Source: Candidatus Oleimmundimicrobium americanum (GTDB lineage Bacteria > Actinomycetota > Aquicultoria > UBA3085 > Oleimmundimicrobiaceae). Taken from it: a stretch of DNA of 64,000 nucleotides. The number at the start of each line of letters is the position of its first letter. Position 1 is the first letter of the stretch. A model generated the notes under the pieces. That model was given only the letters and a program-made list of their open reading frames with translations, was not told where the DNA came from and searched no databases. Location: contig DFBH01000074.1 of assembly GCA_002366545.1 (NCBI GenBank), forward strand, positions 1,033 to 65,032, written 5' to 3'. Of the stretch, positions 11,361 to 57,381 are shown one piece after another. A program made the translations under genes and the position numbers.

Positions 11361-11768
11361 CTATTTACCGCCGCACTTTTTAGCCATCTCTTTAATTATA
11401 TCACTAGCTGCTAAAACACCTACAGGTCTATGCAAAGGGGGCTCGCTCATAATGACCAGGTGATGGATGTGTTTCTCCTGCATAATGGCAACAGCTTCAG
11501 AAACAAGCGCGTCGGGATTAACAATAATGGCACTGCCTCCCAGCACGTCTTCAGCAGTCACCTTATCGACATTTTTTCCATAAGCCTTCAATAAACCCAG
11601 GTCTGAGATGACACCACAAGCCTCACCGACTTCATCTACCACAACGACGCAGTGAACATCGTTTTCAGCCATCGTTTGAGCTATCTCGGAAACAAGTGCT
11701 TCAACATCGCAAGTAACAACGCCCCTATGCATGAGATCCCTCGCTAATAAACTTTCCATTTTTCCCAT
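11361..11768 (-). CDS. CBS domain pair protein
   Basis: Two CBS-like repeats in a 135-aa protein. Confidence 0.55.
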   Translation of the reverse strand: MGKMESLLARDLMHRGVVTCDVEALVSEIAQTMAENDVHCVVVVDEVGEACGVISDLGLLKAYGKNVDKVTAEDVLGGSAIIVNPDALVSEAVAIMQEKHIHHLVIMSEPPLHRPVGVLAASDIIKEMAKKCGGK

Positions 11769-17937: not shown

Positions 17938-18453
17938 TTAATTAAGTTTTTTCTCTTTAGCTCTTGTGTTACGTATAATTTCTCGAGCTTTTTTGGGCGT
18001 CAAACGCCCATGCGTTTCGTCATTTATCCTCATAACAGGGGCAAGACTACAAGCTCCCAAACATGCAACCGACCTTAAAGTAAATTGACGATCATGAGTT
18101 GTTTCCCCTTCTTCAATGCCTAATTCATCAGCCAACGCTTCCGTTATTCTTTTTGCGCCACTTACATAACAAGCCGTCCCATGACACACAGAAATCACGT
18201 TTTTGCCGACCGGAACAAGAGAGAACTGCGAATAAAAAGTGGCTACACCGTAAAGCTGGCTTAATGGAATCCCTGTCGCCTCCGAGACGCAGTCCAAAAC
18301 ATCTTCGGAAAGATAACCGAATTTTTTCTGTATCTCCTGAAGTAGTGGAATGGTTGCTCCAGCATAATTTTTGTACTTTTCAACGATATCTAAAATTTCA
18401 GAGTTATTAAATTCTCCACCATTTAATTTTTCACACTTACATAGACACGCCAT
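17938..18453 (-). CDS. NuoE-like [2Fe-2S] thioredoxin-like subunit (HydC/HndA type) with extra N-terminal Cys cluster
   Basis: 'CHGTACYVSGA...VACLGACSLAPV' is the NuoE 2Fe-2S motif. The N-terminus carries 'MACLCKCEK'. Confidence 0.75.
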   Translation of the reverse strand: MACLCKCEKLNGGEFNNSEILDIVEKYKNYAGATIPLLQEIQKKFGYLSEDVLDCVSEATGIPLSQLYGVATFYSQFSLVPVGKNVISVCHGTACYVSGAKRITEALADELGIEEGETTHDRQFTLRSVACLGACSLAPVMRINDETHGRLTPKKAREIIRNTRAKEKKLN

Positions 18454-27072: not shown

Positions 27073-28422
27073 TTATGCGCTTCGACTTTTAAGATAAGCG
27101 GGGATATCTCCGGCCTCCCGTGGGCCAACTTCTATTTTCCAATCCGGGAGTTCTTCTTCCAGTTCACCGCTTATTTGAGCTACGCATCCCGGTATTATCA
27201 ATTTTCTGTGTTTAACTTTGTCGGTAATCCCACAACGCTTCATGAACGGCCCGATACTTTCGGGCACAAATTTACCGGCTCCCCAAGCAGTTAAAACCGA
27301 TAATCCTTCCACGTCCATTATGCAAATCCAAGATGGAATTTTGCTCGCCTCAACCTCACCTGAAACGGTGAAATAAGTTAAGGAGAAATTGGTGGTAAGA
27401 AGCACCGGGGAATCCTCATCCGGTTCCCCGATGGGATAGATTCCCTCTTCAACCTGCATTGGCTTCTGTGGATCGGTATAGATATTTTGCCTTAAGACAT
27501 ACAGTGGAAGTGCCTTCCAGGCTTCGAGGTCGCTTAAGACGATAATCCCTGCATATTTCATGATACCAACGCCGGCAGCCACCGCTTCCATGTAAGGATC
27601 ATCATACATCTCACAAGGAAAGGTTATTATCGGATACCCAAGGGGTTTAAATTTTTTCTTCAAAGCCGCACGCCTTATAAAAGTAGCATCTCTTAAACTG
27701 TCTTTTATATTTCTTGAACCGGGGTCCAACACTATATCTTTGATCCCCTGTGCGGTTACTTTTTCTACCAACTCGGAAAGAATGTTTAAATCTTTAGCCG
27801 CAACCGCCAAAGGACAATTCTCCTCTTTGGCAAGGGCAGCCATTTGCTCAAAGTTGCCTTCATTTGCCGCATAAATAAGAGGTTTGGTCTTAGCGCAAAC
27901 CGAAAGAGCAGCCTTCATCATCTCGGAATTGTCGGTTATTAACACCAAAGGAAACTCGGTTCCCATGGCTTTCTTAACAAGCTCGACAAATTTAGCCGAA
28001 TCATTTGAAGACGATTTAACTGCCACCAAATCAGCCCGAAGAAATTGACCTACTCTCTCAAATTGAGAACTCTTTAACTGAGCAAGTTTTTCACCGATTT
28101 CCGACTCGCTCATTCCATCATCTACAAGAACAGCAAAGCCCGGCTGATGATAAAAGGTTTTTTCGTGACGAAAAAGCACCGCCTCCTCACCAATTTTTAA
28201 GGCCTTATCGCCAACACCTATCGTAACAAGGCGGATAGGAGGAGCCGAAGCCTCGGATAGCTCGGCTTTGGTTTCTTCGGATACATAAGGACACGCATCC
28301 AATTGTGCTTTTCCCATCGCAAGTTTCATGGCAAAGGCAAGACAAGTGGGAACACCACATTCCCCGCAATTTTTTTGAGGTAATTTTTTGTAAATATCAA
28401 GTCCGGTTAACGCCATATACAT
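27073..28422 (-). CDS. acsC: corrinoid iron-sulfur protein large subunit AcsC (CdhE-like)
   Basis: N-terminal 'CGECGVPTCLAFAMKLA...CPY' [4Fe-4S] motif characteristic of AcsC. Length is 449 aa. RBS is AAAGGAGAG. Confidence 0.85.
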   Translation of the reverse strand: MYMALTGLDIYKKLPQKNCGECGVPTCLAFAMKLAMGKAQLDACPYVSEETKAELSEASAPPIRLVTIGVGDKALKIGEEAVLFRHEKTFYHQPGFAVLVDDGMSESEIGEKLAQLKSSQFERVGQFLRADLVAVKSSSNDSAKFVELVKKAMGTEFPLVLITDNSEMMKAALSVCAKTKPLIYAANEGNFEQMAALAKEENCPLAVAAKDLNILSELVEKVTAQGIKDIVLDPGSRNIKDSLRDATFIRRAALKKKFKPLGYPIITFPCEMYDDPYMEAVAAGVGIMKYAGIIVLSDLEAWKALPLYVLRQNIYTDPQKPMQVEEGIYPIGEPDEDSPVLLTTNFSLTYFTVSGEVEASKIPSWICIMDVEGLSVLTAWGAGKFVPESIGPFMKRCGITDKVKHRKLIIPGCVAQISGELEEELPDWKIEVGPREAGDIPAYLKSRSA

Positions 28423-31118: not shown

Positions 31119-33072
31119 TTTCCAGATCCCTCCTCATCTCCATGTCGTAAAGCACCCTCTCTTTCTCACGATCTATCCCTAAAGCTTTTCTTTTTGCATC
31201 AATGTGTTTAATTATTGTCTTGGCCATCTTAAAGGGATCGGGTTCATAAAACCACTTGCCACCCGTCATCTCCTTAATATCTTTAAAAAGATAATCCGAC
31301 ACCACCTCACTATTGGCCGTCGGGAAAGAGACACCGAAACCGGTCGGAACTCCGCTGGAAACAAAATATTGACCAATGACTACAGCCTTCTCACTCATCC
31401 ACTCGGGAGCACAACCCGCAGCCGGCACTTCATTTAAATCCTCGCCAAGACCACCTTCTTTAACTATCTCCGAGGCAGCAATAAGAATCCGGCTGTTATC
31501 CACGCACGAACCGCAATGAAGCACGGGAGGAATACCCACTGCCTCGCAGACCTCACGCAAACCGGCACCCGCAAGCTCAGCGGCTTCAGGAATAAGCAAT
31601 CTTTCTTTTGCGCAGCTTATCGCGGCGCACCCGGTCACCAAAACAAGCACATTGTTTGCGATAAGTTCTTTAACTAAAGTAGTGTGAACATAATCATGTT
31701 TAACCCGAGGGTTGTTGCATCCCACAACACCGACAACCCCCTTTATCCTGCCATTGATTATATTATCGTTTAACGGCTTGTAAGAGGCACGGAACCGTCC
31801 ACCAAGCAAATACTTTATGGTCTCGTGAGAAAAACCCGCGATTAGGTCAATTTCTTCCTTAGGAATATCGACCCTCCCTCTTTTGGGATAATTTTTAATT
31901 GCCCGCCTGACGATATCTTTTGCAATTTTAAGAGCGTCGTGATGATTAAACTCTATATGTGTAGCACCCAAAATCTTACCCTTCGCTGAGGTGGTAATTA
32001 CCTCAGTGTGATAACATTTAGCCACAGTGGGCAGAGATTGCATGATACATTGAACATCGACAACCATGACATCAACCGCACCTGTGGCAATAGCCAGTTC
32101 CTGCTGTAAGAAGTTACCGGCTACCGGAACACCTTTGCGCATCAAAAGCTCGTTTGCCGTACAACATATGCCGGCAATATTTATACCCTTAGCGCCCACC
32201 TTTTTAGCCTCTTCGATCAGCTCGGAGTCACTTGCAGCAGCAACTATCATCTCCGAAAGCAACGGCTCATGACCGTGAACTATTACGTTAACTTGATTCT
32301 CTTTAAGAACTCCTAAATTCACCTTTGACCTGACTGGAGCGGGAACACCAAAGAGGATATCCTGTAATTCGGTTGCCATCATAGAGCCACCCCAACCATC
32401 GGCCAAAGAGGTTCGGCAACCATGAAGCAAGATGTTTTTATAGTCCTGGTCAACTCCCATGTGAGTTCGATGCATCGTTTCCACTATTTCGCGATCTACC
32501 CCTCGGGGAGATATGCCTTCTTTTCTCCAACGCTCTTGTCTTTTCTCCGGAGCCTGTTTTACAAAAATTATCTCACCTTGTTGCTTCCCCATCTCAGCAA
32601 GAGCTTTCTCGCCCAACTCCAGAGCTATCTGGTTTTTATCCTTACCCTCCATATTAATATCAAAAATTTTGGCCAACGCATGCAACTTTTCTTCATTCTT
32701 AATTTCATAACCAGGTGCCTCACCCTTCGCGGCAGCAATAAAAGTAAATATGACCTCTCTAGCGTGATCAGAGTGTGCGGCCGCGCCGGCGGCTATCATT
32801 CGAGCAAAATTTCTGGCCGCCACCGTAGAGGCAGTGGCACCACAAACTCCCGTCCTCGTCTCAGTTACCCTGCAAGGACCCATTGAGCACACTCTGCAAC
32901 AAGTCCCACCGGCGCCAAATGAACATGGCTTAAGGGAAGCAACCCTTTCAAAGACGGTCTCTGCCCCATCCTTTCTGGCCTTATCTATCATTTTGGCGCT
33001 TGCCGTGCAGCTGGTTTGCGTGCTTGCCGCAGGGTAAAATTTACTTTCTCCTTTTTTGCTTTGCTTTTTCAT
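31111..33072 (-). CDS. acsA: Ni-dependent carbon monoxide dehydrogenase catalytic subunit AcsA/CooS
   Basis: 'CSFGAGGTCCRVCSMGPCRV' B/D-cluster motif and overall CooS family architecture. Length is 653 aa. It overlaps acsB by 8 nt. Confidence 0.9.
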   Translation of the reverse strand: MKKQSKKGESKFYPAASTQTSCTASAKMIDKARKDGAETVFERVASLKPCSFGAGGTCCRVCSMGPCRVTETRTGVCGATASTVAARNFARMIAAGAAAHSDHAREVIFTFIAAAKGEAPGYEIKNEEKLHALAKIFDINMEGKDKNQIALELGEKALAEMGKQQGEIIFVKQAPEKRQERWRKEGISPRGVDREIVETMHRTHMGVDQDYKNILLHGCRTSLADGWGGSMMATELQDILFGVPAPVRSKVNLGVLKENQVNVIVHGHEPLLSEMIVAAASDSELIEEAKKVGAKGINIAGICCTANELLMRKGVPVAGNFLQQELAIATGAVDVMVVDVQCIMQSLPTVAKCYHTEVITTSAKGKILGATHIEFNHHDALKIAKDIVRRAIKNYPKRGRVDIPKEEIDLIAGFSHETIKYLLGGRFRASYKPLNDNIINGRIKGVVGVVGCNNPRVKHDYVHTTLVKELIANNVLVLVTGCAAISCAKERLLIPEAAELAGAGLREVCEAVGIPPVLHCGSCVDNSRILIAASEIVKEGGLGEDLNEVPAAGCAPEWMSEKAVVIGQYFVSSGVPTGFGVSFPTANSEVVSDYLFKDIKEMTGGKWFYEPDPFKMAKTIIKHIDAKRKALGIDREKERVLYDMEMRRDLEIV

Positions 33073-35618
33073 TTGGCGACTCCTTCTTTTGAAACACTCA
33101 CAGCAATTAACCGATCTTGCGGGCTCTTTAATTTTAAATCTATGCCATCGCTCGATAGAACACCTTGTTTATTGTGGCAACTGGGCATAAAAAACATCCC
33201 CTTGGGCAAGAAATCAAGTATCTTCGCCGAGGTTATAACCTTGCCCCGTCTCGATTTAACCGTGACTTTGCAGCCATCCTCAAGCCCCAAAGACGCAGCA
33301 TCATCTGAATTAAAAACAACATAATCTCCCATGTTTGGTTCAAGCTCAGATAGTTTGGAATTTTTTGTTCTAACTCCATCATAGAACCCAAACGTTGTTT
33401 CTCCAACAATTAAAGTATAAGGATATTTTTTATCAGGCTCTTCACCGGAAATCTTGGGCTCCACTAAGGTGAACTTATATGTATTTTTTTCGATTTTCTT
33501 TGGGATAGAAACCAGAGACTTTATTTCCTTGGCAATCTCCTTTTCAGAAGAGTAGTCCATGGTGTAATTTACTTTTTTGGACAAGGCGACTACCGTTTCC
33601 CAATCAGCTTGGACCAAAGGTTCAATGGCTGTCCTAACTTCTTTTGTCCGATATTCCATATTAACAATGGTCCCATTGCTTTCAGCTAAAGTTACGCCCG
33701 GCAACACAACATCGGCCAATTTTGCAGTTTCCGTCAAAAAGGTATCTTGAACCACCAGGAAATCTAAGGATGAAAACGACTTAGCCACGCTGGAAGAGTT
33801 GGGAAGTTGAGCAACCGGATCTGCCCCAATTATATACATTCCAAGAATGGATGAACCCATTCCGTCCAGCATCTCCTTAATAGAAAGTCCGGCTTCTTTG
33901 GAAAGCTTTACTCCCCAGGCCTTTTCAAAATCGCTCCCGGCTTCATCCGCTTTTCTTACACCCGGATAAAATTCAGCCAACGCTCCCATGTAAACCGTGC
34001 CCCACAGATTAGAAGAGAGAAGGCACGGAAGAACGCTCGCTTTGGTTTTACCTGTTAAAAGAGAGATGTCGGCAATCAATTCCATGGTTTGAGGGCTTAC
34101 CGTCTCGGCCCCAAAGATTATAACCGTCTTCTTCCCTTCGCCATAGAGCTTTGCGGCTTCCTTTAAAACATCTTTAGAAATTCCCGACTCTCTTTCCACC
34201 GTTTCCATCTTCAATTTGCCAAGAGATTTCTTTAAGTCCTCAAATTTACCGCATTTCTTGGCAAATTCTTCATCATAAACCTTACCGTCAAGTAACTCTT
34301 TCAAAAGCCCGCTTAAAACAAACTCATTGGAGCCGGCCATTGACTGAATGTGTATATCAGCTTTCTCAGAAATTTTTGTCCTTCCGGCATCTACAACTAC
34401 CAGCTTTGCCCCGTTTGAAAGCGCTCTTTTTACTGCTACACCCACGCGAGGATAGGCCACTGTAACATCCGCGTTTACGAGCAAGAGAGCATCGGCTTCT
34501 TCAATGTTTTCCATTGAAACAACGGCTCCATCTCCCAGCGCTTCGTATAAATCAACCAAAGCGGGAAAACCGAGAAGTCTGGCGGAACTATCAATGTTAT
34601 TCGTCCCAATCCCGGCCCTTAAAAACTTTTGGAATAAGTAAGCAACCTCGTTTGTGTTCCCCGCACCAATAAAACCACCAATCCTATTTGCCCCATGGGC
34701 TTTTCTTATATCAAGAAGACGCTCTGCCGCAAACTCAAAGGCCTCTTCGTAGGTGCTCTCAGTTAAAACCCCGTTCTTTTTAATTAAAGGCTTGGTAATT
34801 CGCTTGGAGCTTTCCACAAAATCCCATCCAAATCTGCCCTTTGCGCAAAGAAAATCTCCGAGGCTCTCGCCGGTTGCTCTCATAATCTGCCCATCTACGG
34901 TACCAAATACGAGGTCACAGCCACAACCGCAATAAGAGCAGACCGTTTTAGTCTCTTCCATCTCCCATTCTCGCCCACGAAAACGCCTATCAACTTCAAG
35001 CAGCGCACCAACGGGACAAACCGCAAGACAACTGCCGCAGAAATCACAGCCCGATTCCTGCAGGGGCTTATCCATTGGTGTCGCCACTTTGGTAACCATA
35101 CCCCGCTTTACAAAATCGATAACATCTGCCCCCTGTGTTTTGCAAATTCCCACACATCGTCCGCACAAAATACAGAGATTGTAATTCCTCTCTATAAAAG
35201 GATTGCTTCTGTCAATCTCGTAACCGGGATCCTTCATTGAAAAAGCGGTTTTCTCAATCCCAAGCTCATAAGCATACTTCTGAAGCTCACAAGCCCCGTT
35301 TTTATCACAACTCATACAATCACCGGGATGATTTGAAAGTATCAGCTCCAGAACAAAACGTCTGGCTTCCCGAACTTTCTCGGTATCAGTATCAATCACC
35401 ATTCCATCCTTAACTTTCCGAGCGCATGAGGCCACGAGCCCTTTGGCCCCCTCAATCTCGACCAAACAAACTCTACACGACCCCGTACTGGGCAAGCATT
35501 CACAATAACAGAGATGGGGGATGTCTATCCCCGCCATCTTGGCCGCCTGAATGATGAGTATCCCTTCAGGAACCTTTGCTTCTTTTCCATTTATCATTAC
35601 GGTGATTTGCTCACTCAA
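33069..35618 (-). CDS. NuoG/FdhA-like molybdopterin-oxidoreductase-family subunit lacking the catalytic Sec/Cys (Leu at that position)
   Basis: The N-terminus has 2Fe-2S plus 4Fe-4S motifs like fdhA. The central motif is 'GTNNIDSSARL-L-GFPALVDL', where fdhA has 'CARL-U-HAPTVAGL'. It overlaps acsA by 4 nt (ATGA). Confidence 0.7.
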   Translation of the reverse strand: MSEQITVMINGKEAKVPEGILIIQAAKMAGIDIPHLCYCECLPSTGSCRVCLVEIEGAKGLVASCARKVKDGMVIDTDTEKVREARRFVLELILSNHPGDCMSCDKNGACELQKYAYELGIEKTAFSMKDPGYEIDRSNPFIERNYNLCILCGRCVGICKTQGADVIDFVKRGMVTKVATPMDKPLQESGCDFCGSCLAVCPVGALLEVDRRFRGREWEMEETKTVCSYCGCGCDLVFGTVDGQIMRATGESLGDFLCAKGRFGWDFVESSKRITKPLIKKNGVLTESTYEEAFEFAAERLLDIRKAHGANRIGGFIGAGNTNEVAYLFQKFLRAGIGTNNIDSSARLLGFPALVDLYEALGDGAVVSMENIEEADALLLVNADVTVAYPRVGVAVKRALSNGAKLVVVDAGRTKISEKADIHIQSMAGSNEFVLSGLLKELLDGKVYDEEFAKKCGKFEDLKKSLGKLKMETVERESGISKDVLKEAAKLYGEGKKTVIIFGAETVSPQTMELIADISLLTGKTKASVLPCLLSSNLWGTVYMGALAEFYPGVRKADEAGSDFEKAWGVKLSKEAGLSIKEMLDGMGSSILGMYIIGADPVAQLPNSSSVAKSFSSLDFLVVQDTFLTETAKLADVVLPGVTLAESNGTIVNMEYRTKEVRTAIEPLVQADWETVVALSKKVNYTMDYSSEKEIAKEIKSLVSIPKKIEKNTYKFTLVEPKISGEEPDKKYPYTLIVGETTFGFYDGVRTKNSKLSELEPNMGDYVVFNSDDAASLGLEDGCKVTVKSRRGKVITSAKILDFLPKGMFFMPSCHNKQGVLSSDGIDLKLKSPQDRLIAVSVSKEGVAK

Positions 35619-35635
35619 CTCTTCTCCTCCTTTAG

Positions 35636-36157
35636 TTAAACGATTTCTATGGCATCGGCTTCACATACGGCCAAACACTCGCCACATTTGGTGCACTTTT
35701 TATTCTTAATGTAGTAGGGTTTATTGTCCGAAAGATACGAAACCATCTTCTCTCCCACAATTGCATCCTCAGGACAAACCTCTTTACAAGCTCCGCAAAT
35801 CGTACATTTCTCGGAATTTATCTGGTAACTCACAATAGTTTCACAAGATTTTTGAGCGCAATACTTGTCCTTTATGTGTTCTTCGTATTCATTTTTAGAT
35901 GAGGACAATGAGTCCTTTACAAAAGTAGCCGCGTCCTTACCCAGTTTGCATCGAGCAGTATCCACGATATAAGAAGATATTTCATCGAGCAAAACAATGT
36001 CTTCTTCTTCTCCTTTTCCATTTGTAATTCTCTCTAAAACATCGATCATTCGCACCGTTCCAAGCATACAGGGCAGGCACTTACCGCACATCTTATCCTT
36101 GGCAAATCCCTTTAAGAATTCAAGTACTATCAAGACCGGGCAACCATCGCTGCTCAT
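35636..36157 (-). CDS. stand-alone NuoF C-terminal-like FeS protein (N3-type 'CGKCLPC' motif + 2x[4Fe-4S] ferredoxin)
   Basis: 'MCGKCLPCMLGT' plus 'CTICGACKEVCP' and 'CTKCGECLAVCE'. It is colinear with the C-terminal 170 aa of the adjacent NuoF-like protein. Confidence 0.6.
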   Translation of the reverse strand: MSSDGCPVLIVLEFLKGFAKDKMCGKCLPCMLGTVRMIDVLERITNGKGEEEDIVLLDEISSYIVDTARCKLGKDAATFVKDSLSSSKNEYEEHIKDKYCAQKSCETIVSYQINSEKCTICGACKEVCPEDAIVGEKMVSYLSDNKPYYIKNKKCTKCGECLAVCEADAIEIV

Positions 36158-38052
36158 GTAGCCACCTCCTGCTTACCGGTAGGAGTAGATTTTCGTTCAA
36201 ACTGCCTCACAACACAACCGGTCGGGCATACTCCTATACAAGCCCCGCACTTTTCACAATATGATAAATCGATATAGAATCTGTCTCGCTCTTCCACAAT
36301 CGCGTCAAAAGCACACGCCTCCTTGCAAAGGCCGCAAAGAAGACAATCCTCCTCGTTTATCCGGTAATGGCCAAGTGCCGCACATTGCCCAGCCGGACAA
36401 TATTTATCCCTTATGTGAGCTTCATACTCATCTCTAAAATATTTAATGGTTGAAAGCACGGGATTGGGTGCACTCTTACCTAAACCACATAGAGCAGTTT
36501 CTTGAATATGTTTGCCGATGCTTTCCAAACGCTCAATATCTCCTTCTTCACCCTTGCCTTCGACAATTCTACTTAAAATCTCAAGCATCTCATGTGTCCC
36601 AATCCTGCAAGGCGGACATTTCCCGCAGGATTCCACCTGCGTGAAAGAGAGAAAATATCTTGCTAATTCAACCATGCAGTCGGACTCATCCATCACGACA
36701 AGTCCACCGGAGCCCATCATAGCCCCAGCTTCTGTTAATGAATCAAAGTCAACGAATAAATCCAAATATTCTTTTGGAAGACAACCGCCGCTAGGCCCTC
36801 CTGTCTGAACAGCTTTAAACTCTTTATCTCCCAAGATGCCACCGCCTATATCATAGACAATTTCCCGAATGGTTATTCCCATGGGAACCTCAATAAGACC
36901 AGTGTTCTTCACTTTTCCGGTAAGAGCAAATATTTTGGTTCCCGGAGAACCCTTCGTGCCTATGGAAGTGTACCAATCCGCTCCCTTAATTATTATTGGG
37001 GGAACATTAGCAAAGGTTTCAACATTATTTAACACGGTGGGTTTATCCCATAGCCCTCTCTCCACAGAACGAGGAGGAGTGGTTCGAGGCATTCCCCTTT
37101 TGCCCTCGATAGAAAACATGAGTGCCGTCGATTCTCCACAAATGAAAGCTCCCGCCCCACGTTTTATTTCCAAATCGAAATCAAAACCACTCCCAAGGAT
37201 ATTTTCACCCAAAAGACCAATCTCTCTCGCTTGGTTAATGGCTATTGTTAGATTATCAACCGCCAAGGGATATTCTTGTCTTACATATATAAATCCCTCT
37301 TTGCAATTGCCCAGAGCATAGGCTCCTATTATCATGCCTTCGATGACAGAATGAGGATCACCCTCCAAAACACTTCTATCCATAAAGGCCCCCGGGTCAC
37401 CTTCGTCACCGTTGCAAACAATATACTTTACGTCACCTTTTGTTCTTCGACCGCCTTCCCACTTTCTTCCCGCAGGAAAACCTGCCCCACCTCGACCTCT
37501 TAAATTAGATTTTTTAACCTCTTTTATCACTTCTTCCGGGGTCATATCATTTAAAACTTTTGCCAACGCTTCATAGCCACTGGCCACTATGTAATCTTCT
37601 ATATTGATAGGATCAACATGGCCACAATTCCTTAAAACTATCCTATGCTGTTTACCATAAAAGGAAATTTCCTCTTCTTTAACAGCAAGTTCGCCGATGA
37701 CAGGATCAACCACTTGCAACCGATCAACGACCTTGCCGCGATTTATTGTAAGGTCAACTATTTTCGCCGCATCAAATGGATCAACCTTTTGATAAAAAAC
37801 ATCTAAGGGCTCCACAATTACAACAGGACCTTTTTCGCACAATCCCTGGCAACCCGTGGGTCTTATCTCAAAATCGATGCCTTGTTTGACGGCTTCCGCT
37901 TTGAAGGCCTCAACAACCTTTTGTGCACCGGAAGCGCGGCATCCTGTCCCGCTGCAGACCCGAACTATCGTCTTTTTCTGCTTCGCTCTTTCGCTACATA
38001 TTTTTTTTCTCAAGACACTTAGTTCATTAGGGCTTTTAAACTTACTCATCAT
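36154..38052 (-). CDS. NuoF-like NAD(P)H-binding flavoprotein subunit with C-terminal 2x[4Fe-4S]
   Basis: 'NLRGRGGAGFPAGRKW', 'ESCGKCPPCRIGT', two C-terminal ferredoxin motifs. The probable start is ATG 38052 (RBS AAGGAAG, 8-nt overlap with the upstream nuoE-like stop) rather than 38082. Confidence 0.8.
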   Translation of the reverse strand: MMSKFKSPNELSVLRKKICSERAKQKKTIVRVCSGTGCRASGAQKVVEAFKAEAVKQGIDFEIRPTGCQGLCEKGPVVIVEPLDVFYQKVDPFDAAKIVDLTINRGKVVDRLQVVDPVIGELAVKEEEISFYGKQHRIVLRNCGHVDPINIEDYIVASGYEALAKVLNDMTPEEVIKEVKKSNLRGRGGAGFPAGRKWEGGRRTKGDVKYIVCNGDEGDPGAFMDRSVLEGDPHSVIEGMIIGAYALGNCKEGFIYVRQEYPLAVDNLTIAINQAREIGLLGENILGSGFDFDLEIKRGAGAFICGESTALMFSIEGKRGMPRTTPPRSVERGLWDKPTVLNNVETFANVPPIIIKGADWYTSIGTKGSPGTKIFALTGKVKNTGLIEVPMGITIREIVYDIGGGILGDKEFKAVQTGGPSGGCLPKEYLDLFVDFDSLTEAGAMMGSGGLVVMDESDCMVELARYFLSFTQVESCGKCPPCRIGTHEMLEILSRIVEGKGEEGDIERLESIGKHIQETALCGLGKSAPNPVLSTIKYFRDEYEAHIRDKYCPAGQCAALGHYRINEEDCLLCGLCKEACAFDAIVEERDRFYIDLSYCEKCGACIGVCPTGCVVRQFERKSTPTGKQEVAT

Positions 38053-38557
38053 TCTCTTCCTTTTTATTTTTAAGAATTGCAATTATCTTCTTCGGATTTT
38101 TCTCTCTTGAAACTTCTTCGTTTACCACCACAACAGGGGCAAGGGCACAACACCCCACACAACTTACCGTTTCAAGCGTGAACTCAAAGTCGTCGGTCGT
38201 CTCGCCGGCTTTTATGCCAAGCTCTTCTTCTAGTCCTTCAAGAATTATCTTTGAACCGCGAACGTGACAAGCCGTGCCCGTGCAAACTTTAATTATATTT
38301 TTGCCTCGCGGAGTGAAATAAAAATGCGCGTAAAACGAGGCCACTCCATAAACGTGAGCCAGAGATAAATCAAATTCATCAGCGATGACTCCAATCGCTT
38401 CTCCGGGCAAAAAACCAAATTCTTTCTGAACATCTTGAAGAGCGTGTACAAGCACCCCTCTTCTGCCTTTATATTTTTTTAAAAGCTCACAAACGCGACC
38501 CGTATCTACTTGAACTTTTACATCTTCCTTCTTGGTATTGCATGCGCAACCGCACAT
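38042..38557 (-). CDS. NuoE-like [2Fe-2S] subunit with N-terminal 'MCGCAC' Cys cluster
   Basis: 'CTGTACHVRGS...VSCVGCCALAPV' is the NuoE motif. Confidence 0.75.
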   Translation of the reverse strand: MCGCACNTKKEDVKVQVDTGRVCELLKKYKGRRGVLVHALQDVQKEFGFLPGEAIGVIADEFDLSLAHVYGVASFYAHFYFTPRGKNIIKVCTGTACHVRGSKIILEGLEEELGIKAGETTDDFEFTLETVSCVGCCALAPVVVVNEEVSREKNPKKIIAILKNKKEENDE

Positions 38558-44984: not shown

Positions 44985-45725
44985 TTACATACCCAAGAGC
45001 AATTTTAGTTCGGAAGCCTTTCTTCGACTTACCGGAACCTCGATTTCCCCGGAAAGACGAAGGATAAAGCTTCCATGAAACATTGGCACAACTTCTTTTG
45101 CTTTGTGAATATTAACTAAGTAGCTGCGGTGAGTTCTAAAAAAACCCTTATTTACGAGACGTGATTCCAAATCTTTTAAATTAAACGAAGCGTAATATAC
45201 TCCACCAACCGCATGAACAAAAACCCGTTCATTTTGCGCATGGATATAGGCTATCTTATCAATTGGTAACAATATGGTCTTCCCCTTCTCTTGCACCGGC
45301 AAAAGATCTATGCCGGTCTCTTCTCCTCTGATTTTCCTACGCTCAAGTTTTTTAAATTTCGCTTTGCGTCGAGAGATTTTATCTATAGTTTGAGCTAAGC
45401 GCCCCTCCTCAAATGGCTTAACCAGATAGTCTACGGCGTCAAGCTCAAATGCTTTTACTGCATGCTCCCCGTAAGCAGTAACGAAAACAACCATCGGTGA
45501 CGATGGAAGCTCTTTAACAATCTCAGCCACTTGAAGTCCGCTTAATCCCTGCATCTGTATATCCATAAAAACCACATCATAATTTAAGGCTTTTATGAGT
45601 TTGATGGCCTCGTTTGCGTTCGTCGCCTCACCAACAACTTCAACATCTCTTATCTCTTGCAACATATACCTAAGTTCCGAGCGAGCAGGTGCTTCATCAT
45701 CAACTATCAAGGCTCTAAGCTTCAT
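44985..45725 (-). CDS. LytR/AlgR-family response regulator (REC + LytTR DNA-binding domain)
   Basis: 'ALIVDDE...DVVFMDIQM' receiver domain and a C-terminal LytTR domain: 'FRTHRSYLVNI'. Confidence 0.8.
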   Translation of the reverse strand: MKLRALIVDDEAPARSELRYMLQEIRDVEVVGEATNANEAIKLIKALNYDVVFMDIQMQGLSGLQVAEIVKELPSSPMVVFVTAYGEHAVKAFELDAVDYLVKPFEEGRLAQTIDKISRRKAKFKKLERRKIRGEETGIDLLPVQEKGKTILLPIDKIAYIHAQNERVFVHAVGGVYYASFNLKDLESRLVNKGFFRTHRSYLVNIHKAKEVVPMFHGSFILRLSGEIEVPVSRRKASELKLLLGM

Positions 45726-47037
45726 CTTCTTCTCCTATCGGGATTCGCATTGTAATCTTCGTACCTTCATCTCTTACACTTAAAATATCCAATGCATGTT
45801 CTTTACCATAAAGGCTCTTTAGTCTTTCGTTCACATTACTTAAACCTATCCCCATCCCCTTGCCGAAACCCGGGGACAAGACCCTCTTCATATCTTCTGA
45901 TTTGATACCTTTCCCGTTATCACACACTTGAATTACCATTTCAGAATCATAAATTTTTGTTGCTATTCTTATTTTGACGTGTCCCTCCGGTGTTCCTCCA
46001 TGCTTAACCGCGTTTTCAACCAAAGGCTGAACAATCAAAGCAGGTATTTTTACTCCAAAAGTTTTTTCATCTATCTCTTTGAGCACTTGAAGATTTTTTC
46101 CAAAACGCGCTTTTTCAAGTAAGAGATACAAGCTAATGTAGTCGATTTCCTCTTCCACGGTTACTAAGTCTGATTCCCGCTCAAGCGACCGCCTGAAAAA
46201 ATCAGCAAACTGGATTGTGAGCCTCCTGGCTTTTTTTGGTTCAGTTCGACACAAGCTGGCAATAGTATTTAGAATATTGAAGAGAAAGTGTGGGTTTATC
46301 TGGGCTTGTAATGCTTTGAGCTCAGCTTCGCAAGCAAGCCCCTCTTGCCTGTCAATCTCCGAGAGCTCAAGTTGAGTACTCAACAATTTAGCCAGCCCTT
46401 CGGCCAACATTATTCTACTCTCAGTCAATTTTTCTTTATTAGGATAGTAAAACTTTAAAGTACCGGCGACTTTACCCCTGAGCTCTAAAGGAACTACTAT
46501 GGCCGCCCTTAAAGGACAGCTCGCAATGGGACAGCCAATTTCTTCTTTACTTTCCAAAATTCTAAACTCATTGTGACTTAAAGCCTCTTTGGTCGCCTCC
46601 GTTAAAATCGGCGATCCCGTTTTGTGGTGATCCTCCCCCACACCGGAAAAAGCCAACACTGTCGTCAGACTCGTGAGCGCCACAGCCATCGCATCGGTAC
46701 TTTTTATTAATATTTTTGCAACCTCGTTGGCCGATTTTTCGTTGAGACCCATTCGAAGGTGAGGCAACGTAGCATTTGCTATCTCGAAAACCCAATGGGA
46801 ATATTCGGCTTTGAGATGTTCGGGCTCACTTTTTATTGCAAAGAGTTTTAGAACCATAAATATCGCAAATGATACGAACAACCCCATCAAGATTAAGCCC
46901 CATCCTTTGGAAATTGTTCCAAAGAAGGACAAAATCCACCCAAAAATTACAGTAGCAAGCCCCGCAACCACACCCAATACTATTTTTTGGTGTTTAAATC
47001 TATTTGTATCAAAATATTTCCCGTGCTTAACAACCAT
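45715..47037 (-). CDS. LytS/YehU-family sensor histidine kinase (TM + GAF-like + His_kinase/HATPase)
   Basis: 'INPHFLFNILNTIASL' is the PF06580 signature, with a C-terminal HATPase_c. It overlaps the response regulator by 11 nt. Confidence 0.75.
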   Translation of the reverse strand: MVVKHGKYFDTNRFKHQKIVLGVVAGLATVIFGWILSFFGTISKGWGLILMGLFVSFAIFMVLKLFAIKSEPEHLKAEYSHWVFEIANATLPHLRMGLNEKSANEVAKILIKSTDAMAVALTSLTTVLAFSGVGEDHHKTGSPILTEATKEALSHNEFRILESKEEIGCPIASCPLRAAIVVPLELRGKVAGTLKFYYPNKEKLTESRIMLAEGLAKLLSTQLELSEIDRQEGLACEAELKALQAQINPHFLFNILNTIASLCRTEPKKARRLTIQFADFFRRSLERESDLVTVEEEIDYISLYLLLEKARFGKNLQVLKEIDEKTFGVKIPALIVQPLVENAVKHGGTPEGHVKIRIATKIYDSEMVIQVCDNGKGIKSEDMKRVLSPGFGKGMGIGLSNVNERLKSLYGKEHALDILSVRDEGTKITMRIPIGEEDEA

Positions 47038-48247: not shown

Positions 48248-48439
48248 TATACTAAAAAAATGTGTGGCTTGCCCACAAGAAAAATTATTTTAACATTCCC
48301 TTTTTTTAGTTAAAATAATCTCGGCCTTTTTGATTACCTCAATTTCGAGTCTAACTCGCTTCTCGTCCCTCATTTCGCTAACTTGAGGGAAACAAAAGAA
48401 TTACCTTGCACCAAGGAAATTTAAACGACCTTTATCTTG

Positions 48440-48607
48440 GAAGGATGTAAATTACAGAACTTTGTGGGCTTGACTCTCCGTTTTCAAAAAATTCATCCTT
48501 CCAATGTTGGTTGCTCTTACTATGCTCTATACCCCATCTGCCATCTGTTATTTGCCACCTGCCATCAGCCACCTGCAATCCGCCCCGCCAGCGGCGGGCA
48601 GGCATCA
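48440..48607. repeat. low-complexity intergenic block ending in a GC hairpin, 3' of the HydS-GGDEF gene
   Basis: CCCCATCTGCCATCTG, TTGCCACCTGCCATCAGCCACCTGC, then CCGCCCCGCCAGCGGCGGGCAGGCATC abutting the stop codon. Confidence 0.5.
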
Positions 48608-50386
48608 TCAAACACCCTTCGCTATGCATGTTTTGTTACGGCCACCCTTCTTGGCTTGATACATTGCTTGATCCGCTCTATCAAATAAAAGCGGAGAATC
48701 CTTTATCCCCAAGGAAAAAGAGGCAATCCCCAAACTCAAAGTTATCGGAATGCGTTTTCCTTCAAAAATAAAATCAAATTCTTCCGTCTTGCTGCGTAAC
48801 TTTTCCGCAACCGCAAAAGCTTCCGTTTTTGTAATTTGAGGTAAAATTATCGCAAATTCGTCCCCTCCTTGACGAGCGGGCATGTCGGCCTCGCGCAAAT
48901 TCTTGAGCAATATTTTGGCAACCATTTTTAAAACCTCATCACCTCTTAGATGCCCATACGTATCGTTTATTAACTTAAATCGGTCGACATCGAAAACTAT
49001 AACGGAGAGCGCTGAGCCATAGCGTTTAGCTCTATTTACTTCCCTCTCAAGGGAGTAGGTAAAACCATAATGGTTTAACAATCCAGTAAGTGTATCTCTC
49101 ATGGACATTTTTTTTGCATCTTCTTTTATTCGGCTCATAAGCTTTTTTTGATAGGGAAAACATGTGCTCCAATCCGTCATTCCTTTGTAGATTGCAAGCG
49201 CATTTTCGCTACAGGTTTTATGACCACAAGCACCGCAATTGAGCTCGTCTTCTGGAGAAGAAATTTCTGCCTTTACCATCAATTCCCTTAACTCCTCTTT
49301 TGTCGGAGAAACCGTATCAACCGCTTTATTTGCAAAAGTTCTCCTCAGCCCAATTTCAGGCAAATTGGGAACTATCTCAGAAAAATCAGACCATTTAATT
49401 TTTCTTCTTTCTTTACTGTAATTTTGTTGTATTTGTTTTTTCAAAGCATACAAACTTCGTCCTCCGGCAAGCCCATTTCTCATAATAGGTCCATCAATAC
49501 AGCCGTTACAGCCCAAAGCGTCCACAAAGCATGCTCGGACTTCGTTTGTATTTAAGGCTTCCGCTAGAGCCTGAACACTATCTGCTCCTCTAGCCACCTT
49601 AAAATTACGACTAATTGTATTTATTTTTTTCATAAACTGCTTAGGCAGTCCCCCCGGCAAAGAATTTACACGGGGAACTCGTTCAACCGGCTCCAGTTTT
49701 GCTCCCGTCAACGACCGAAGATCTATTTCCGAGTCTTCAAACATCTTTTTTAGTTCGGAAAAGGTTATAACTACATCAATAGCACCCTTAGCAGATTCAT
49801 CCATCGCTTCGGCTCTTTGAGCAACACAAGAGGTTATATACATAGTGTGAGCTTCTTCATACAACGCCTTACAGAGACGCCCCTGCGCAATCATAGGAGA
49901 TACAATCGGCGCCAGGATAGAGACGAGATCGGGAAAATACTTTTCTATAAAACTCACAACAACAGGACAGGTGGAACGAATTATCGGGAAATCCTCGTCT
50001 TGGCTCAAAATCCTCATATACTCGGCGGCTACAAGCTCTTCCCCCAAGATTGTTCCCTCAACAACATCGAAGCCAAGTTTGATAAGACCGGCAGCAATTT
50101 CGGTTGAGCCAAACGGCTGAAAAGCAACGAGATATTCAGGGGCCAAAATTGCAATAGCTTTACCTCTTTTTTTAGCAAGACGATATGCTCTTTTTGTGTT
50201 GTCTTTAAGTTTCAATGCCCCCCGAGAACAAGCTAAAACACACTCACCACAATATATACACGTTTCGTGCATAACCTCAACGTGTCCATCATTTACCTTT
50301 ATGCTCTTAACAGGACAAGCACGAACACAACTATAGCACTCTTTGCATTTATCAAAACTACCTTCTACAACTTCTATGAGCTCCAT
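48608..50386 (-). CDS. sensory-type [FeFe]-hydrogenase-like domain (HydS-like) fused to a C-terminal GGDEF diguanylate cyclase domain
   Basis: N-terminal 2x[4Fe-4S] ferredoxin. Degenerate H-cluster motifs: L1 'RSTCPVV' (single Cys), L2 'TSCVAQRAE', L3 'DALGCNGCIDGP'. An exact Cx2Cx4Cx16C accessory motif ('CGACGHKTC...16...C'). A C-terminal GGDEF domain: 'RQGGDEFAI', 'RYGG', 'DRFK'. Confidence 0.7.
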   Translation of the reverse strand: MELIEVVEGSFDKCKECYSCVRACPVKSIKVNDGHVEVMHETCIYCGECVLACSRGALKLKDNTKRAYRLAKKRGKAIAILAPEYLVAFQPFGSTEIAAGLIKLGFDVVEGTILGEELVAAEYMRILSQDEDFPIIRSTCPVVVSFIEKYFPDLVSILAPIVSPMIAQGRLCKALYEEAHTMYITSCVAQRAEAMDESAKGAIDVVITFSELKKMFEDSEIDLRSLTGAKLEPVERVPRVNSLPGGLPKQFMKKINTISRNFKVARGADSVQALAEALNTNEVRACFVDALGCNGCIDGPIMRNGLAGGRSLYALKKQIQQNYSKERRKIKWSDFSEIVPNLPEIGLRRTFANKAVDTVSPTKEELRELMVKAEISSPEDELNCGACGHKTCSENALAIYKGMTDWSTCFPYQKKLMSRIKEDAKKMSMRDTLTGLLNHYGFTYSLEREVNRAKRYGSALSVIVFDVDRFKLINDTYGHLRGDEVLKMVAKILLKNLREADMPARQGGDEFAIILPQITKTEAFAVAEKLRSKTEEFDFIFEGKRIPITLSLGIASFSLGIKDSPLLFDRADQAMYQAKKGGRNKTCIAKGV

Positions 50387-55095: not shown

Positions 55096-57381
55096 CTAAC
55101 TTTCACCTGACAGACAATCAAAAGAATGGTGGTTTGCAACAAGTTTGAGCCTATCGCTTAGGTTACCGAGACTAACCGATAGAAAATTGCTTAAAAGATG
55201 CTCGCCGGTCATCTGTTTGATTAGAGAAGTTAAGGCCGAAAGAAATTTCTTATAAACTTTTATCTCTTCATCAAAAGACACGTGGTCATCTTCTGCAATT
55301 TCAACTCTGCCATTATTAATTTTCAAATTGAGCTCTTCTCTTAATACAAGCTTTTTAATTTCAATGTCTAGATTTCGCATCATCTTCTGTCCGCCTATCT
55401 TGGCATATTGTTCCAATAAAGAATTAGCAATGTTTAAAAAAGTTTCCCTTACCGCTCGCTTTTCGGCCTCTTTGCCCGCCAACAAGTCTTTATATAAATC
55501 ATCATTAGAAAAAATTTTAATTTTGCCTTTCTCAAAAACCGAAAGAAAAGCCTTCGCTACATCCGGGCTAAACTGAGAACCCGACCCACTTTTTACCTCC
55601 TCCATAGCCTCAACAGCCATTTTGGCTTTATGATAAGGCCTATCTGATACCATTGCTTCAAAGCTATCGGCCACCGTAAGAATTCGAGCACCCAATGGTA
55701 TTTCATCACCTGCTAATCCGCCAGGGTAGCCCAAGCCATCATAACGTTCGTGGTGATGACGCACAAGGGATACAATGTCCCAAGGAAATTCAATCGGAGA
55801 TAGTATATTAGCTCCGATTAAAGAATGTGTTTGCATAATTATCATCTCATCAAAAGTAAACTTGCCCGGCTTAAGAAGTATCTTCTCGCTGATGCCAATT
55901 TTCCCGATATCATGTAACGTCGCCGCCACCCGGATTCTTTCCTTTTCAAAATCACTCAATCTCATCTCTTCAGCAACCACAACTGCGTAATCTGTAACCC
56001 TTTCCGAATGACCTCGAGTGTACATATCCTTAGCATCCACCGCCTCAGCCAGAGCGCTTATAACGCCAAAGAAATTGTTTTTAATTCCTTGGTAAAACCT
56101 TGAATTTTCGAGAGCCATCGCTGCTTCGTTTGCCATTGCTACAAGGAGTTCAAGGTCATCTTGGTCAAAAGTTTCACTGCCAATTTTGTTTGTCACATTA
56201 AGCACGCCGATTATCTTGCCCTTTACTTTTAAGGGGGCAACAATTGCATCTTTTACCTCTTCCTTTGCATAAATTGGTTTAAAACGAGGATCATTTATCC
56301 CATCGATAAGAAGAAGTGGCTCACCTCTTTTGGCCACCCAACCGGCGATTCCATCTCCCAATTTAAGCTTCGTACTTTTTATAACCTCCTCGCTTAAATC
56401 ATGTGCCGCTTTGACAACCAACTCGCCCTTTTTCTCATCAAGCATCATCAAGGAGGCCCTCTCGGCTCCCATAATGCTAGTAGCCGCATCCAAAATTGTT
56501 TTCGAAAGTTTCCTTTCGTTAAGGGAAGAGCCAAGCGCTCTTCCCACACTTGTAACGCAGGCTTTTGCTTGACGCTGGGAAGCGTCAAGCTGACTTATTA
56601 ATGAAGAAAGTTTCTCGGTCATCATATTGCACGTTTCAAACAACTCGCCGAACTCATCCTTGGATAAAATTTTTGCCCTCTTTTTGAAGTCGCCTTTTGC
56701 CACCTGTTGAGCGGTACCCCTTAGAATATCAATTGGACGATATACAAACTTTGATAAAGCTACCCAGTACAAAAGAAAACTCACTAAAGTAGCTACAAAT
56801 GCCAGCAATAAATTTCGCAAATAAACTGCATCTATGGCTTTAGCTAACTCGCTGAGGTTAGAATATATGTGAATAGCTCCCAGCAATTTTCCTTCGCCAA
56901 AAAGTGGCATCACAATCTCTTGAGCCCTGGGCCTTCTGTCGAAAAAACTAAAGGACTCAACTATTTCGCCTTCTTCTTCCCCTTTAGTTCTAAAAGCCCA
57001 AACATGTTCGATAACTTTTCTATCTTTTATAGCGTAAACTAAGCATTCATCTTCATCTTGCTTACCTGTCTCTTCGGAATCAAGAGAGGTAAGTATTTTC
57101 CCATCCCGGCCGACCACCCGAAAAAAAACAAAATCTTGATTAAAAGAATCAATGAAATTAATTAAGTGTCTCTTCTCGGAAGAGGAAAGCTCCTCATCTT
57201 TGAGAAAATCCTCAGTATGATGCTTAATAGAATTTGCGATAATAAGATTTTTCTCTTTTACATCTTTCAGCCAGCTATTTTTTTGCCATTGTATTGAAAA
57301 ATAAGTTAGGGTAGCAGTAAGCATAAAAATTAATCCCGCCATCACCAAACCGAGCTTCCAGCGCAGCTTTAATTTAAGCAT
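55096..57381 (-). CDS. membrane signalling protein with HAMP, GAF and HD-GYP (c-di-GMP phosphodiesterase) domains
   Basis: N-terminal TM plus a periplasmic domain and a second TM/HAMP. A GAF domain. 'LHDIGK' plus 'HHERYDGLGYPGGL' give the HD-GYP signature. Confidence 0.75.
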   Translation of the reverse strand: MLKLKLRWKLGLVMAGLIFMLTATLTYFSIQWQKNSWLKDVKEKNLIIANSIKHHTEDFLKDEELSSSEKRHLINFIDSFNQDFVFFRVVGRDGKILTSLDSEETGKQDEDECLVYAIKDRKVIEHVWAFRTKGEEEGEIVESFSFFDRRPRAQEIVMPLFGEGKLLGAIHIYSNLSELAKAIDAVYLRNLLLAFVATLVSFLLYWVALSKFVYRPIDILRGTAQQVAKGDFKKRAKILSKDEFGELFETCNMMTEKLSSLISQLDASQRQAKACVTSVGRALGSSLNERKLSKTILDAATSIMGAERASLMMLDEKKGELVVKAAHDLSEEVIKSTKLKLGDGIAGWVAKRGEPLLLIDGINDPRFKPIYAKEEVKDAIVAPLKVKGKIIGVLNVTNKIGSETFDQDDLELLVAMANEAAMALENSRFYQGIKNNFFGVISALAEAVDAKDMYTRGHSERVTDYAVVVAEEMRLSDFEKERIRVAATLHDIGKIGISEKILLKPGKFTFDEMIIMQTHSLIGANILSPIEFPWDIVSLVRHHHERYDGLGYPGGLAGDEIPLGARILTVADSFEAMVSDRPYHKAKMAVEAMEEVKSGSGSQFSPDVAKAFLSVFEKGKIKIFSNDDLYKDLLAGKEAEKRAVRETFLNIANSLLEQYAKIGGQKMMRNLDIEIKKLVLREELNLKINNGRVEIAEDDHVSFDEEIKVYKKFLSALTSLIKQMTGEHLLSNFLSVSLGNLSDRLKLVANHHSFDCLSGES

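Follow-up and report, generated by a model that had tools for sequence, protein, structure and literature searches.

A putative diguanylate cyclase with a sensory-hydrogenase-like iron-sulfur input module in Candidatus Oleimmundimicrobium americanum

A stretch of 64,000 nucleotides from contig DFBH01000074.1 of Candidatus Oleimmundimicrobium americanum (hereafter the window) carries a gene whose product joins an iron-sulfur (Fe-S) module, resembling that of sensory [FeFe]-hydrogenases (HydS), to a GGDEF domain. This fusion protein is likely to be a cytoplasmic, signal-transducing diguanylate cyclase (DGC) with a HydS-like Fe-S input, and judging from its domains it probably turns the status of hydrogen or redox into the signal of a second messenger. 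The reading is based on the observed domain order, the cofactor motifs, the intact cyclase with its inhibition site (I-site), a helical connector of fixed length and the modularity of the input. An initial annotation, made from the letters alone, had reported the open reading frame (ORF), several short motifs and the domain architecture, all of which are present exactly as described. The gene and its parts are located as follows:

48608..50386, minus strand: the whole fusion gene, ATG start, 592 amino acids (aa), a soluble Fe-S sensor/diguanylate cyclase fusion (ORF and Pfam)
50213..50356, minus strand: N-terminal 2x[4Fe-4S] ferredoxin domain, residues 11-58, with CxxCxxCxxxCP and CxxCxxCxxxC (Fer4_10, Fer4 and Fer4_7 matches)
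49487..50158, minus strand: [FeFe]-hydrogenase H-domain, residues 77-300 (Fe_hyd_lg_C, PF02906, E 5.8e-41)
49157..49243, minus strand: C-terminal accessory [4Fe-4S] motif Cx2Cx4Cx16C, residues 384-409 (PF04060, 382-410)
49097..49159, minus strand: amphipathic connector helix of 21 residues, 410-430, from the last cluster Cys to the DxLTG start of the GGDEF domain (helix 410-428 in the AlphaFold2 model)
48632..49102, minus strand: GGDEF diguanylate cyclase domain, residues 429-585, with the active site (A-site) at 507-511 and the I-site at R498-x-x-D501

Pfam, NCBIfam and structure prediction agree on this architecture. In the domain searches both halves of the fusion are significant: the H-domain scores 141 bits against a Pfam cut-off of 22, and the GGDEF domain matches PF00990 (E 6.9e-44) over positions 2-161 of 161 as well as TIGR00254 (E 4e-47). 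The C-terminal cluster motif, CGACGHKTCSENALAIYKGMTDWSTC at residues 384-409, lies within an FeS match to PF04060 (residues 382-410; 28.3 bits, cut-off 23). An AlphaFold2 model of the monomer, built from a 69-sequence family alignment, has a pLDDT of 91.7 and a pTM of 0.79, and its helix 410-428 is continuous. When this model was compared with solved structures using Foldseek, approximately the first 420 residues matched the hydrogenases DdH, CbA5H and CpI at E ~1e-19, the GGDEF domain matched 3IGN (40% identity, TM 0.95, rmsd 1.4 Å), and the helix together with the GGDEF domain aligned to the coiled-coil-regulated DGCs PadC (5LLW) and GCN4-WspR (3I5C). No membrane segment was found in the protein (maximum KD19 1.48). 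A 100% identical copy is present on public metagenome contigs.

Alignments to solved [FeFe]-hydrogenases, among them CbA5H and HydA1, place C140, C187, C293 and C296 on the H-cluster ligands C300, C355, C499 and C503 of CpI, so that all four ligand cysteines are retained, and T139 on the proton-relay residue C299, which confirms the loss of this cysteine postulated initially. The three H-domain motifs are RSTCPVV (residues 137-143), TSCVAQRAE (185-193) and DALGCNGCIDGP (289-300), followed much further downstream by RQGGDEF (505-511). They depart from the canonical catalytic motifs L1 TSCCPxW, L2 MPCxxKxxE and L3 ExMxCxxGCxxG, for which the protein has RSTCPVV, TSCVAQRAE and DALGC-NGCIDG, respectively; the individual substitutions are C299->T, M353->T, K358->Q and M497->L, and the loop from C499 to C503 is one residue shorter. 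A hydrogenase fold with its ligand cysteines might suggest a working catalytic enzyme of H2 metabolism to which the GGDEF domain is an add-on. However, the proton-relay Cys is missing and the canonical motifs are not preserved, no NuoEF-type partner subunits are encoded in an operon with the fusion gene, and the closest characterised proteins, TmHydS and TamHydS, have very low activity (PMC8163306). A catalytic hydrogenase is thus a highly improbable explanation, the least credible of those considered here.

The output half shows no such departures. The GGDEF domain bears DVDRFKLINDTYGHLRGD, GGDEF and AKKGGRN, and its I-site, R498-E-A-D501, is located five residues upstream of GGDEF. In the 84 family members with an intact GGDEF motif, all of these elements (DxDxFKxxNDxxGHxxGD, RxxD with both of its residues, GGDEF and AKKGGRN) are conserved without exception. 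With a full-length Pfam match and both sites intact, the domain is predicted to be catalytically complete, as the initial annotation had anticipated, and has an intact RxxD product-inhibition site.

These members come from a search of 5.8 billion proteins, in which clusters were defined at 90% identity. About 90 clusters have the Fer4/Fe_hyd_lg_C/FeS/GGDEF architecture, at 30-93% identity to the query. Nearly all derive from deep-branching Wood-Ljungdahl Actinomycetota, the named sources being metagenome-assembled genomes (MAGs) of Ca. Oleimmundimicrobium (72%), Ca. Aquicultor and "Coriobacteriia", where the proteins are annotated as "diguanylate cyclase" only. By taxonomy, the host is thereby placed among deep-branching, Aquicultoria-type Actinomycetota; it is uncultured and acetogen-like. 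All 16 cluster cysteines are essentially invariant in the 84 members, including the eight of the ferredoxin domain, which are kept family-wide, and the four of Cx2Cx4Cx16C (84/84); the four H-cluster cysteines are invariant in 89/89 members of the main clade. The connector measures exactly 21 aa in 71 of 80 members and has hydrophobic residues at positions 1, 8, 12, 15 and 19. Such a heptad pattern at fixed length is what one would expect of a signalling helix that forms a coiled coil, like those of PadC and WspR. Ten further loci, down to 35% identity, carry the fusion gene in the same chromosomal backbone. The gene is preceded by genes for a 2-oxoacid:ferredoxin oxidoreductase, an HD-GYP protein (some loci), aspartate kinase, Asd, a LOG-like and, in some loci, a YbaK-like protein; it is followed by a NUDIX or radical-SAM gene, TauE, LytS/LytTR and, in Aquicultor-like genomes, the Wood-Ljungdahl cluster. 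The recurrence of this backbone in all ten points to a core gene that is old and was inherited vertically. The fusion is a conserved syntenic family and neither rare nor a singleton.

Two small groups deviate from this uniformity. A "Coriobacteriia" subclade (P0081, P0082, P0084, P0086, P0088, P0099 and P0106; locus L008) has WTGDRF in place of YGGDEF and keeps the cluster cysteines and RxxD. Cyclic di-GMP (c-di-GMP) is probably not made by these members, which may serve as sensors that bind it or that are altered in some other way. In a nested branch consisting of the protein encoded at 9872-11650 of locus L010 (a Gemmatimonadales MAG), P0105 and P0113, the H-cluster ligand cysteines are lost (RSTDP; SHEGWLDHP). 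This branch is derived (100/100 bootstrap) and retains the Cx2Cx4Cx16C cluster and an intact GGDEF motif; its H-domain appears to be a scaffold only. That parts of the protein can decay in this manner would fit a signal-blind N-terminal relic or scaffold attached to a constitutive cyclase, regulated only by the I-site or by partner proteins. The main clade is incompatible with this idea, as it keeps the 16 cluster cysteines, the signature of the H-domain pocket (see below) and the exact linker down to ~35% identity. A relic is accordingly very unlikely.

To which known sensory hydrogenases is the input module related? Like the group C HydS enzymes it has an N-terminal 2x[4Fe-4S] domain, four ligand cysteines, no relay Cys at position 299 and the Cx2Cx4Cx16C motif (PMC8163306, PMC5037454). 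The last, which is common to HydS enzymes (PMC8163306) and was described for TmHydS and TamHydS (PMC8163306, PMC13104023), is exact, as the initial annotation had stated. In contrast to group C, the query has Thr rather than Ala at position 299, a GGDEF output and no PAS domain: no Pfam match to PAS was obtained in the fusion protein even at E<=1, and only 21 residues separate C409 from the start of GGDEF. Its L3 motif is one residue shorter (Cx2C), as in relatives fused to histidine kinase (HK), sigma54-activator and methyl-accepting chemotaxis protein (MCP) outputs, and its clade further differs by APS->AxE, a variable K358, the lost aromatic residue at F417 and the lack of an adjacent catalytic hydrogenase. 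Because the class-defining PAS domain is absent, the protein does not appear to be, strictly speaking, a HydS of group C (M2f); of the HydS-type group C assignment proposed at first, the kinship with HydS and the cluster motif stand. Membership in group D (M2e) was considered as well, on account of M353->T, M497->L and the missing PAS domain. TamHydS, the group D representative, was rebuilt from its coding sequence as given in the supplementary material of PMC13104023, and 20/20 cited residue numbers match. Like the query, it is free of a PAS domain and has three accessory clusters of the same kind, Leu at M497, a residue with a hydroxyl group at M353 (in the query, Thr) and near-identical H-domain numbering, but APS, K358 and Cx3C are kept in it and its chain stops behind the C-terminal helix, without an output domain (PMC10407848). 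Group D was rejected on the basis of only 25% identity, the differences at APS, K358 and Cx3C, and the lack of the E252 relay; the group-D-exclusive path E252/S249/D265 (TamHydS numbering) is not present, the query having GGLPK and its clade G[FY]PR where TamHydS has SGGE.

The closest relatives instead appear to be group-C-like modules with other outputs. The query sensor module is 31-39% identical to PAS-, HK-, MCP- and sigma54-fused modules, compared to 25% for TamHydS. When the sensor module was compared with 1.84 billion cluster representatives, it had 611 relatives at E<=1e-30. Among those sampled, the same [2xFer4/H-domain/Cx2Cx4Cx16C] unit is fused to HisKA/HATPase, MCPsignal, Sigma54_activat+HTH, PAS, PAS-HK-REC or GAF-HK, and there are three further independent GGDEF fusions (P0121, P0069 and P0186), of which P0121 and P0069 have a canonical pocket. 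Since His-kinase, MCP, sigma54-activator and PAS outputs follow the same module in other bacteria, it would be a portable signal-input domain of the HydS kind, with GGDEF as one of several outputs. Direct fusions include P0127 (MCP) and the multi-domain kinases P0142 and P0192 (PAS/GAF-kinase-receiver). An NtrC-type sigma54-activator AAA+/HTH output occurs in several lineages (P0124, P0135, P0145 and P0148), an output class not named in the HydDB group C scheme. In a neighbor-joining tree rooted on TamHydS, the only type of tree calculated and one that contains neither the TmHydS sequence nor group A/B outgroups, the clade of the query, hereafter the RSTCP clade, is monophyletic (98/100 bootstrap) and nests in direct-output modules with shortened L3 (DxLxCxGC; Cx2C for Cx3C).

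A fusion of this kind seems to be new. HydDB names only His-kinase-, MCP- and phosphatase-linked classes of sensory (group C) [FeFe]-hydrogenases and no GGDEF-linked class (PMC5037454), and no [FeFe]-type sensor fused to GGDEF is described in the literature searched (full text), in agreement with the initial annotation, which knew of no characterised hydrogenase-GGDEF fusion. The same literature contains no characterised DGC with a four-cluster Fe-S or hydrogenase-like input. The sole conceptual precedent for a hydrogenase sensor that acts on a DGC is the [NiFe] group 2c, "diguanylate cyclase-linked (putative)", for which the same logic from hydrogenase-type sensor to c-di-GMP was proposed (PMC5037454). 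However, its metallo-centre and fold are unrelated, the link is a genetic association and not a single polypeptide, and the class is uncharacterised. On the output side, PadC (5LLW), WspR, DgcR and PleD share a canonical GGDEF domain that has both the A-site and the RxxD I-site and lies behind an amphipathic helix of fixed length; they differ in their phytochrome, receiver or haem inputs, which contrast with the four-cluster Fe-S/hydrogenase-like module. The fusion would be an Fe-S or H2 sensor that drives c-di-GMP synthesis, in a family that is common in metagenomes and uncharacterised.

The nature of the signal depends on whether the H-domain still binds the diiron subsite, [2Fe]H, of the H-cluster. 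The RSTCP clade was compared with 26 HK-type sequences, five PAS-type sequences and TamHydS; the PAS-type HydS (Clostridium, Butyrivibrio and others) and the Bacteroidales His-kinase fusion were from the genome-scan matches listed, of which loci L010-L015 were used, most of the others being unrelated GGDEF proteins. At the following positions around [2Fe]H (group A numbering, CpI), the clade differs from every comparator:

A-P-S232: A-x-Glu in the RSTCP clade (88/88); APS in the comparators
T297-S-C299: Arg-Ser-Thr in the RSTCP clade (88/88, 88/88 and 87/88); S/T/A, S/T and P/A/C/S in the comparators
K358: R48, A20, K8 and Q6 in the RSTCP clade (Gln in the query); invariant Lys in the comparators (26/26 HK, 5/5 PAS and TamHydS)
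F417: L/Y/I/V in the RSTCP clade; 100% aromatic, F/Y, in the HK and PAS types
Residue after F417: Ser in the RSTCP clade (89/89); Pro in the comparators
GG-[LIV]-[LIV] loop: G-[FY]-Pro-Arg in the RSTCP clade; GG-[LIV]-[LIV] in the comparators

The initial annotation had called the L1-L3 motifs degenerate. They are indeed altered, but this understated the change, because the residues that anchor and pack the diiron site (S232->E, the variable K358, the lost F417 aromatic) are systematically replaced and the RSTCP clade lacks the usual anchoring set in the S232 region, at K358 and at F417. In their place the clade has a specific pocket comprising A82-P-E84, R137-S-T139-C-P, S242, G246-L-P248-K249, D289-x-L291 and the Cx2C loop. 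Since conservation of this pocket (0.82) exceeds the H-domain average (0.56), the site appears to be under selection with a new identity.

Two explanations of this new identity have to be weighed, and the conserved cysteines do not decide between them, because the same set is expected under both. In the first, the protein is a bona fide H2 sensor with a complete H-cluster in a re-engineered pocket, where binding or oxidation of H2 would directly switch c-di-GMP synthesis. Thr139 would replace the relay Cys, and Glu84, Arg137, Arg/Lys249 and Asp289 could serve as new ligand anchors or as a proton path. Besides the invariant H-cluster cysteines, the clade retains P324, the glycine of the GG loop and the carboxylate of L3, the position facing the azadithiolate (adt) is strictly Thr, and no part of the H-domain is better conserved than the pocket residues. 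The changes M353->S/T/G and M497->L are also found in the active TmHydS and TamHydS (PMC8163306), 56/89 members still have a cationic residue (R or K) at the position of K358, and an Arg/Lys that is new and invariant has appeared in the GGV loop. The closest relatives are HydS-type modules. Both TmHydS and TamHydS contain an H-cluster and respond to H2, and their C-terminal cluster has been put forward as the signalling element (PMC8163306, PMC13104023). H2 would also be a relevant signal for a Wood-Ljungdahl host.

Several observations weigh against direct H2 sensing. The replaced or variable anchoring and packing residues set the clade apart from every comparator: S232->Glu puts a carboxylate where the proximal CN- ligand is normally hydrogen-bonded, the position of K358 is Ala, Gln or Val in about one third of the members (Gln in the query), and the aromatic residue at F417 is lost. 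In group A enzymes, a cationic residue beside the distal CN- is needed to retain [2Fe]H, and its mutation abolishes the subsite (PMC11376134). The derived sub-branch without H-cluster cysteines keeps the C-terminal cluster and GGDEF. Neither the 64-kb window nor ten further loci of 20 kb yielded a gene for the maturases HydE, HydF or HydG, in a search that covered these loci and not whole genomes. The radical-SAM neighbour in Coriobacteriia-like loci was considered as a HydE/HydG maturase and rejected, since NCBIfam identifies it as an AmmeMemoRadiSam enzyme. No catalytic [FeFe]-hydrogenase was detected among annotated ORFs of >=150 aa in the window, and none of 11 fusion loci has a second H-domain gene within 10 kb, whereas four of five PAS/HK-type (classical HydS) loci do. 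A survey of related Wood-Ljungdahl Actinobacteria reported [FeFe]-hydrogenase and HydEFG in one assembly only (PMC7325909). This link stays indirect, because the fusion-bearing MAGs that could be traced (GCA_030651595.1, GCA_023511485.1, GCA_964521195.1, GCA_900174565.1, GCA_003491635.1 and GCA_014859275.1) are not among the genomes surveyed, and the supplements of that paper contain no hydE/F/G table.

The second explanation, an Fe-S-only redox sensor, assumes that the diiron site was lost and that its cavity is filled by an invariant charged network of Glu84, Arg137, Arg249 and Asp289. Four [4Fe-4S] clusters would then signal to the GGDEF domain how far ferredoxin-type carriers are reduced, or that O2 or NO has caused damage. 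This agrees with the concerted replacement of both CN-anchor positions and the F417 aromatic, accompanied by the appearance of the invariant Arg and Glu. It agrees as well with the loss of [2Fe]H from group A enzymes without the CN-proximal cation, with the lack of maturase or hydrogenase linkage in 11 loci, and with the literature on related clades, which points the same way (PMC7325909). Moreover, the signature E84, R137-S-T139, P248 and D289 is still present in the branch devoid of cubane cysteines, so that its role would seem to be structural and not tied to an H-cluster. However, the strict Thr at the adt-facing position and P324 are most simply explained by a bound diiron site, the maturase search covered the loci and not the host genomes, and a bacterial apo-type H-domain sensor has no characterised precedent. 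The initial annotation had proposed that sensing of H2 or redox state is coupled to c-di-GMP. The fusion of a sensor module to a cyclase makes this probable, but H2 sensing is not established because a complete H-cluster is not. In our assessment, direct H2 sensing at a remodelled H-cluster is plausible at somewhat short of even chances, Fe-S-only redox sensing is given the same somewhat-under-even rating, and a small remainder falls to all other explanations. With a little more reserve, one might regard the RSTCP clade as an unrecognised class of H2 sensors, with the H-cluster in a re-invented pocket (Thr/Glu proton relay, Arg cyanide anchors and a short bridging-Cys loop) and H2 read out as c-di-GMP by one polypeptide.

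For the DGC with HydS-like Fe-S input, the following mechanism can be envisaged under either kind of signal. The fusion protein would act as a homodimer with its chains in parallel. The state of the clusters, electronic or ligand-related, would be set by H2 if a matured diiron subsite is present and otherwise by low-potential carriers such as ferredoxin or by oxidants, and would be passed on through the C-terminal cluster domain to the three-heptad coiled-coil helix. A shift in helix register or geometry would join or separate the two GTP-loaded GGDEF domains and so switch c-di-GMP synthesis, with the RxxD site limiting the output. Transmission may be conformational rather than by electron transfer to the C-terminal cluster. 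The dimer and the helix-register step are drawn by analogy, and the structural model is that of a monomer, which counts against this part of the proposal. HD-GYP enzymes would remove the c-di-GMP, and one candidate is encoded nearby:

55096..57381, minus strand: HAMP-GAF-HD-GYP protein (Pfam HAMP, GAF, HD_5/HD), with the motif HD...HHERYDGLGYP

This protein is a probable c-di-GMP phosphodiesterase. Its gene, 4.7 kb from the fusion gene, was correctly noticed in the initial annotation but assigned to the downstream side; as both genes are on the minus strand, it is located upstream. It has the same relative position in loci L007 and L008, a fragmented copy occurs in L009, and no HD-GYP neighbour is present in L004, L005 and L006. 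The HD-GYP protein may be a partner of the fusion protein, and the proposed pathway would tie the supply of reductant to lifestyle decisions in a Wood-Ljungdahl organism.

Otherwise the fusion gene in the window is monocistronic or lies among housekeeping genes. The context is mostly of the latter kind; functional partners are hinted at only by two recurrent neighbours, HD-GYP and LytS/LytTR. The LytS/LytTR pair, encoded at 44985-47037 (minus strand), comprises a histidine kinase of the LytS type (GAF_3 + His_kinase + HATPase) and a response regulator of the LytTR type, and is found 2-6 kb from the fusion gene in all loci examined (L004-L009 and L090-L092), down to 35% identity, often accompanied by a TauE-family permease. 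A functional link between LytS/LytTR and the fusion protein is possible. In more distant members (L007, 11834-12901; L008, 11798-12823; L009; L092), the AmmeMemoRadiSam-system radical-SAM gene follows the fusion gene after ~10-20 nucleotides (nt) and is probably co-transcribed with it. In the window, the fusion gene is followed by a 360-nt non-coding stretch (48250-48607) where L004, L005, L006 and L091 have a NUDIX hydrolase gene. The stretch opens with the GC-rich hairpin GCCCGCCGCTGGCGGGGC and contains a tandem imperfect repeat of 21 nt at 48534-48575. A 58-aa ORF at 48432-48608, which appears in public gene calls and overlaps the fusion stop codon, has no family match; with NUDIX in its place in relatives, it is probably not a gene. 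Rfam and repeat scans around the fusion gene gave nothing relevant.

The energy metabolism that the initial annotation had placed around the fusion gene (Wood-Ljungdahl pathway, Hdr and NuoEF modules) is found at 12-44 kb of the window, in the form of genes for carbon monoxide dehydrogenase/acetyl-CoA synthase (CODH/ACS), FTHFS, RACo, FolD, MetF/V, Hdr-like proteins and two NuoEF-formate dehydrogenase modules. CdhD/AcsC, the large subunit of the corrinoid Fe-S protein (27073-28422, minus strand), starts with the same PF04060 FeS domain (E 3e-14) as seen in the C-terminal cluster of the fusion protein. Two adjacent ORFs at 12162-14858 (minus strand), one with a NuoG-like N-terminus and the start of a molybdopterin domain and the other with the remainder of that domain, form one gene of the formate dehydrogenase (FDH) type. 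As the in-frame TGA at 13800-13802 falls inside the classic motif IDHCARL-U-HAPTVAGL, this gene very probably encodes a selenocysteine-containing FDH. It adjoins genes for NuoF- and NuoE-like subunits (15325-17142 and 17938-18453). A second module at 33069-38557 (minus strand), directly upstream of CODH/ACS, consists of NuoE, NuoF, a small Fe-S protein and a NuoG-molybdopterin protein of 849 aa (Fer2_4 + NADH-G_4Fe-4S_3 + Molybdopterin). It resembles the electron-bifurcating HydABC layout, but a molybdopterin subunit replaces the H-domain.

The relay of signals in putative sensory [FeFe]-hydrogenases is an open question: TmHydS and TamHydS are without assayable output, and their C-terminal cluster's role is unresolved (PMC13104023). 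The single-chain cyclase fusion offers a direct readout, the formation of c-di-GMP, and mutation of its rigid 21-residue connector could test how cluster state is converted into conformation. HydDB-type classifiers may count the fusion genes as "sensory hydrogenases", and screens that rely on motifs will overlook them. Should the diiron site be absent, the family would clearly exemplify how a hydrogenase domain has been converted to Fe-S redox sensing in bacteria. If it is present, the pocket would represent a new H-cluster environment and the first direct link from H2 to c-di-GMP. The fusion would then be the first [FeFe]-hydrogenase of the sensory type whose enzymatic output is easy to assay, and the deep-branching acetogenic Actinomycetota would gain a pathway from H2 to a second messenger.

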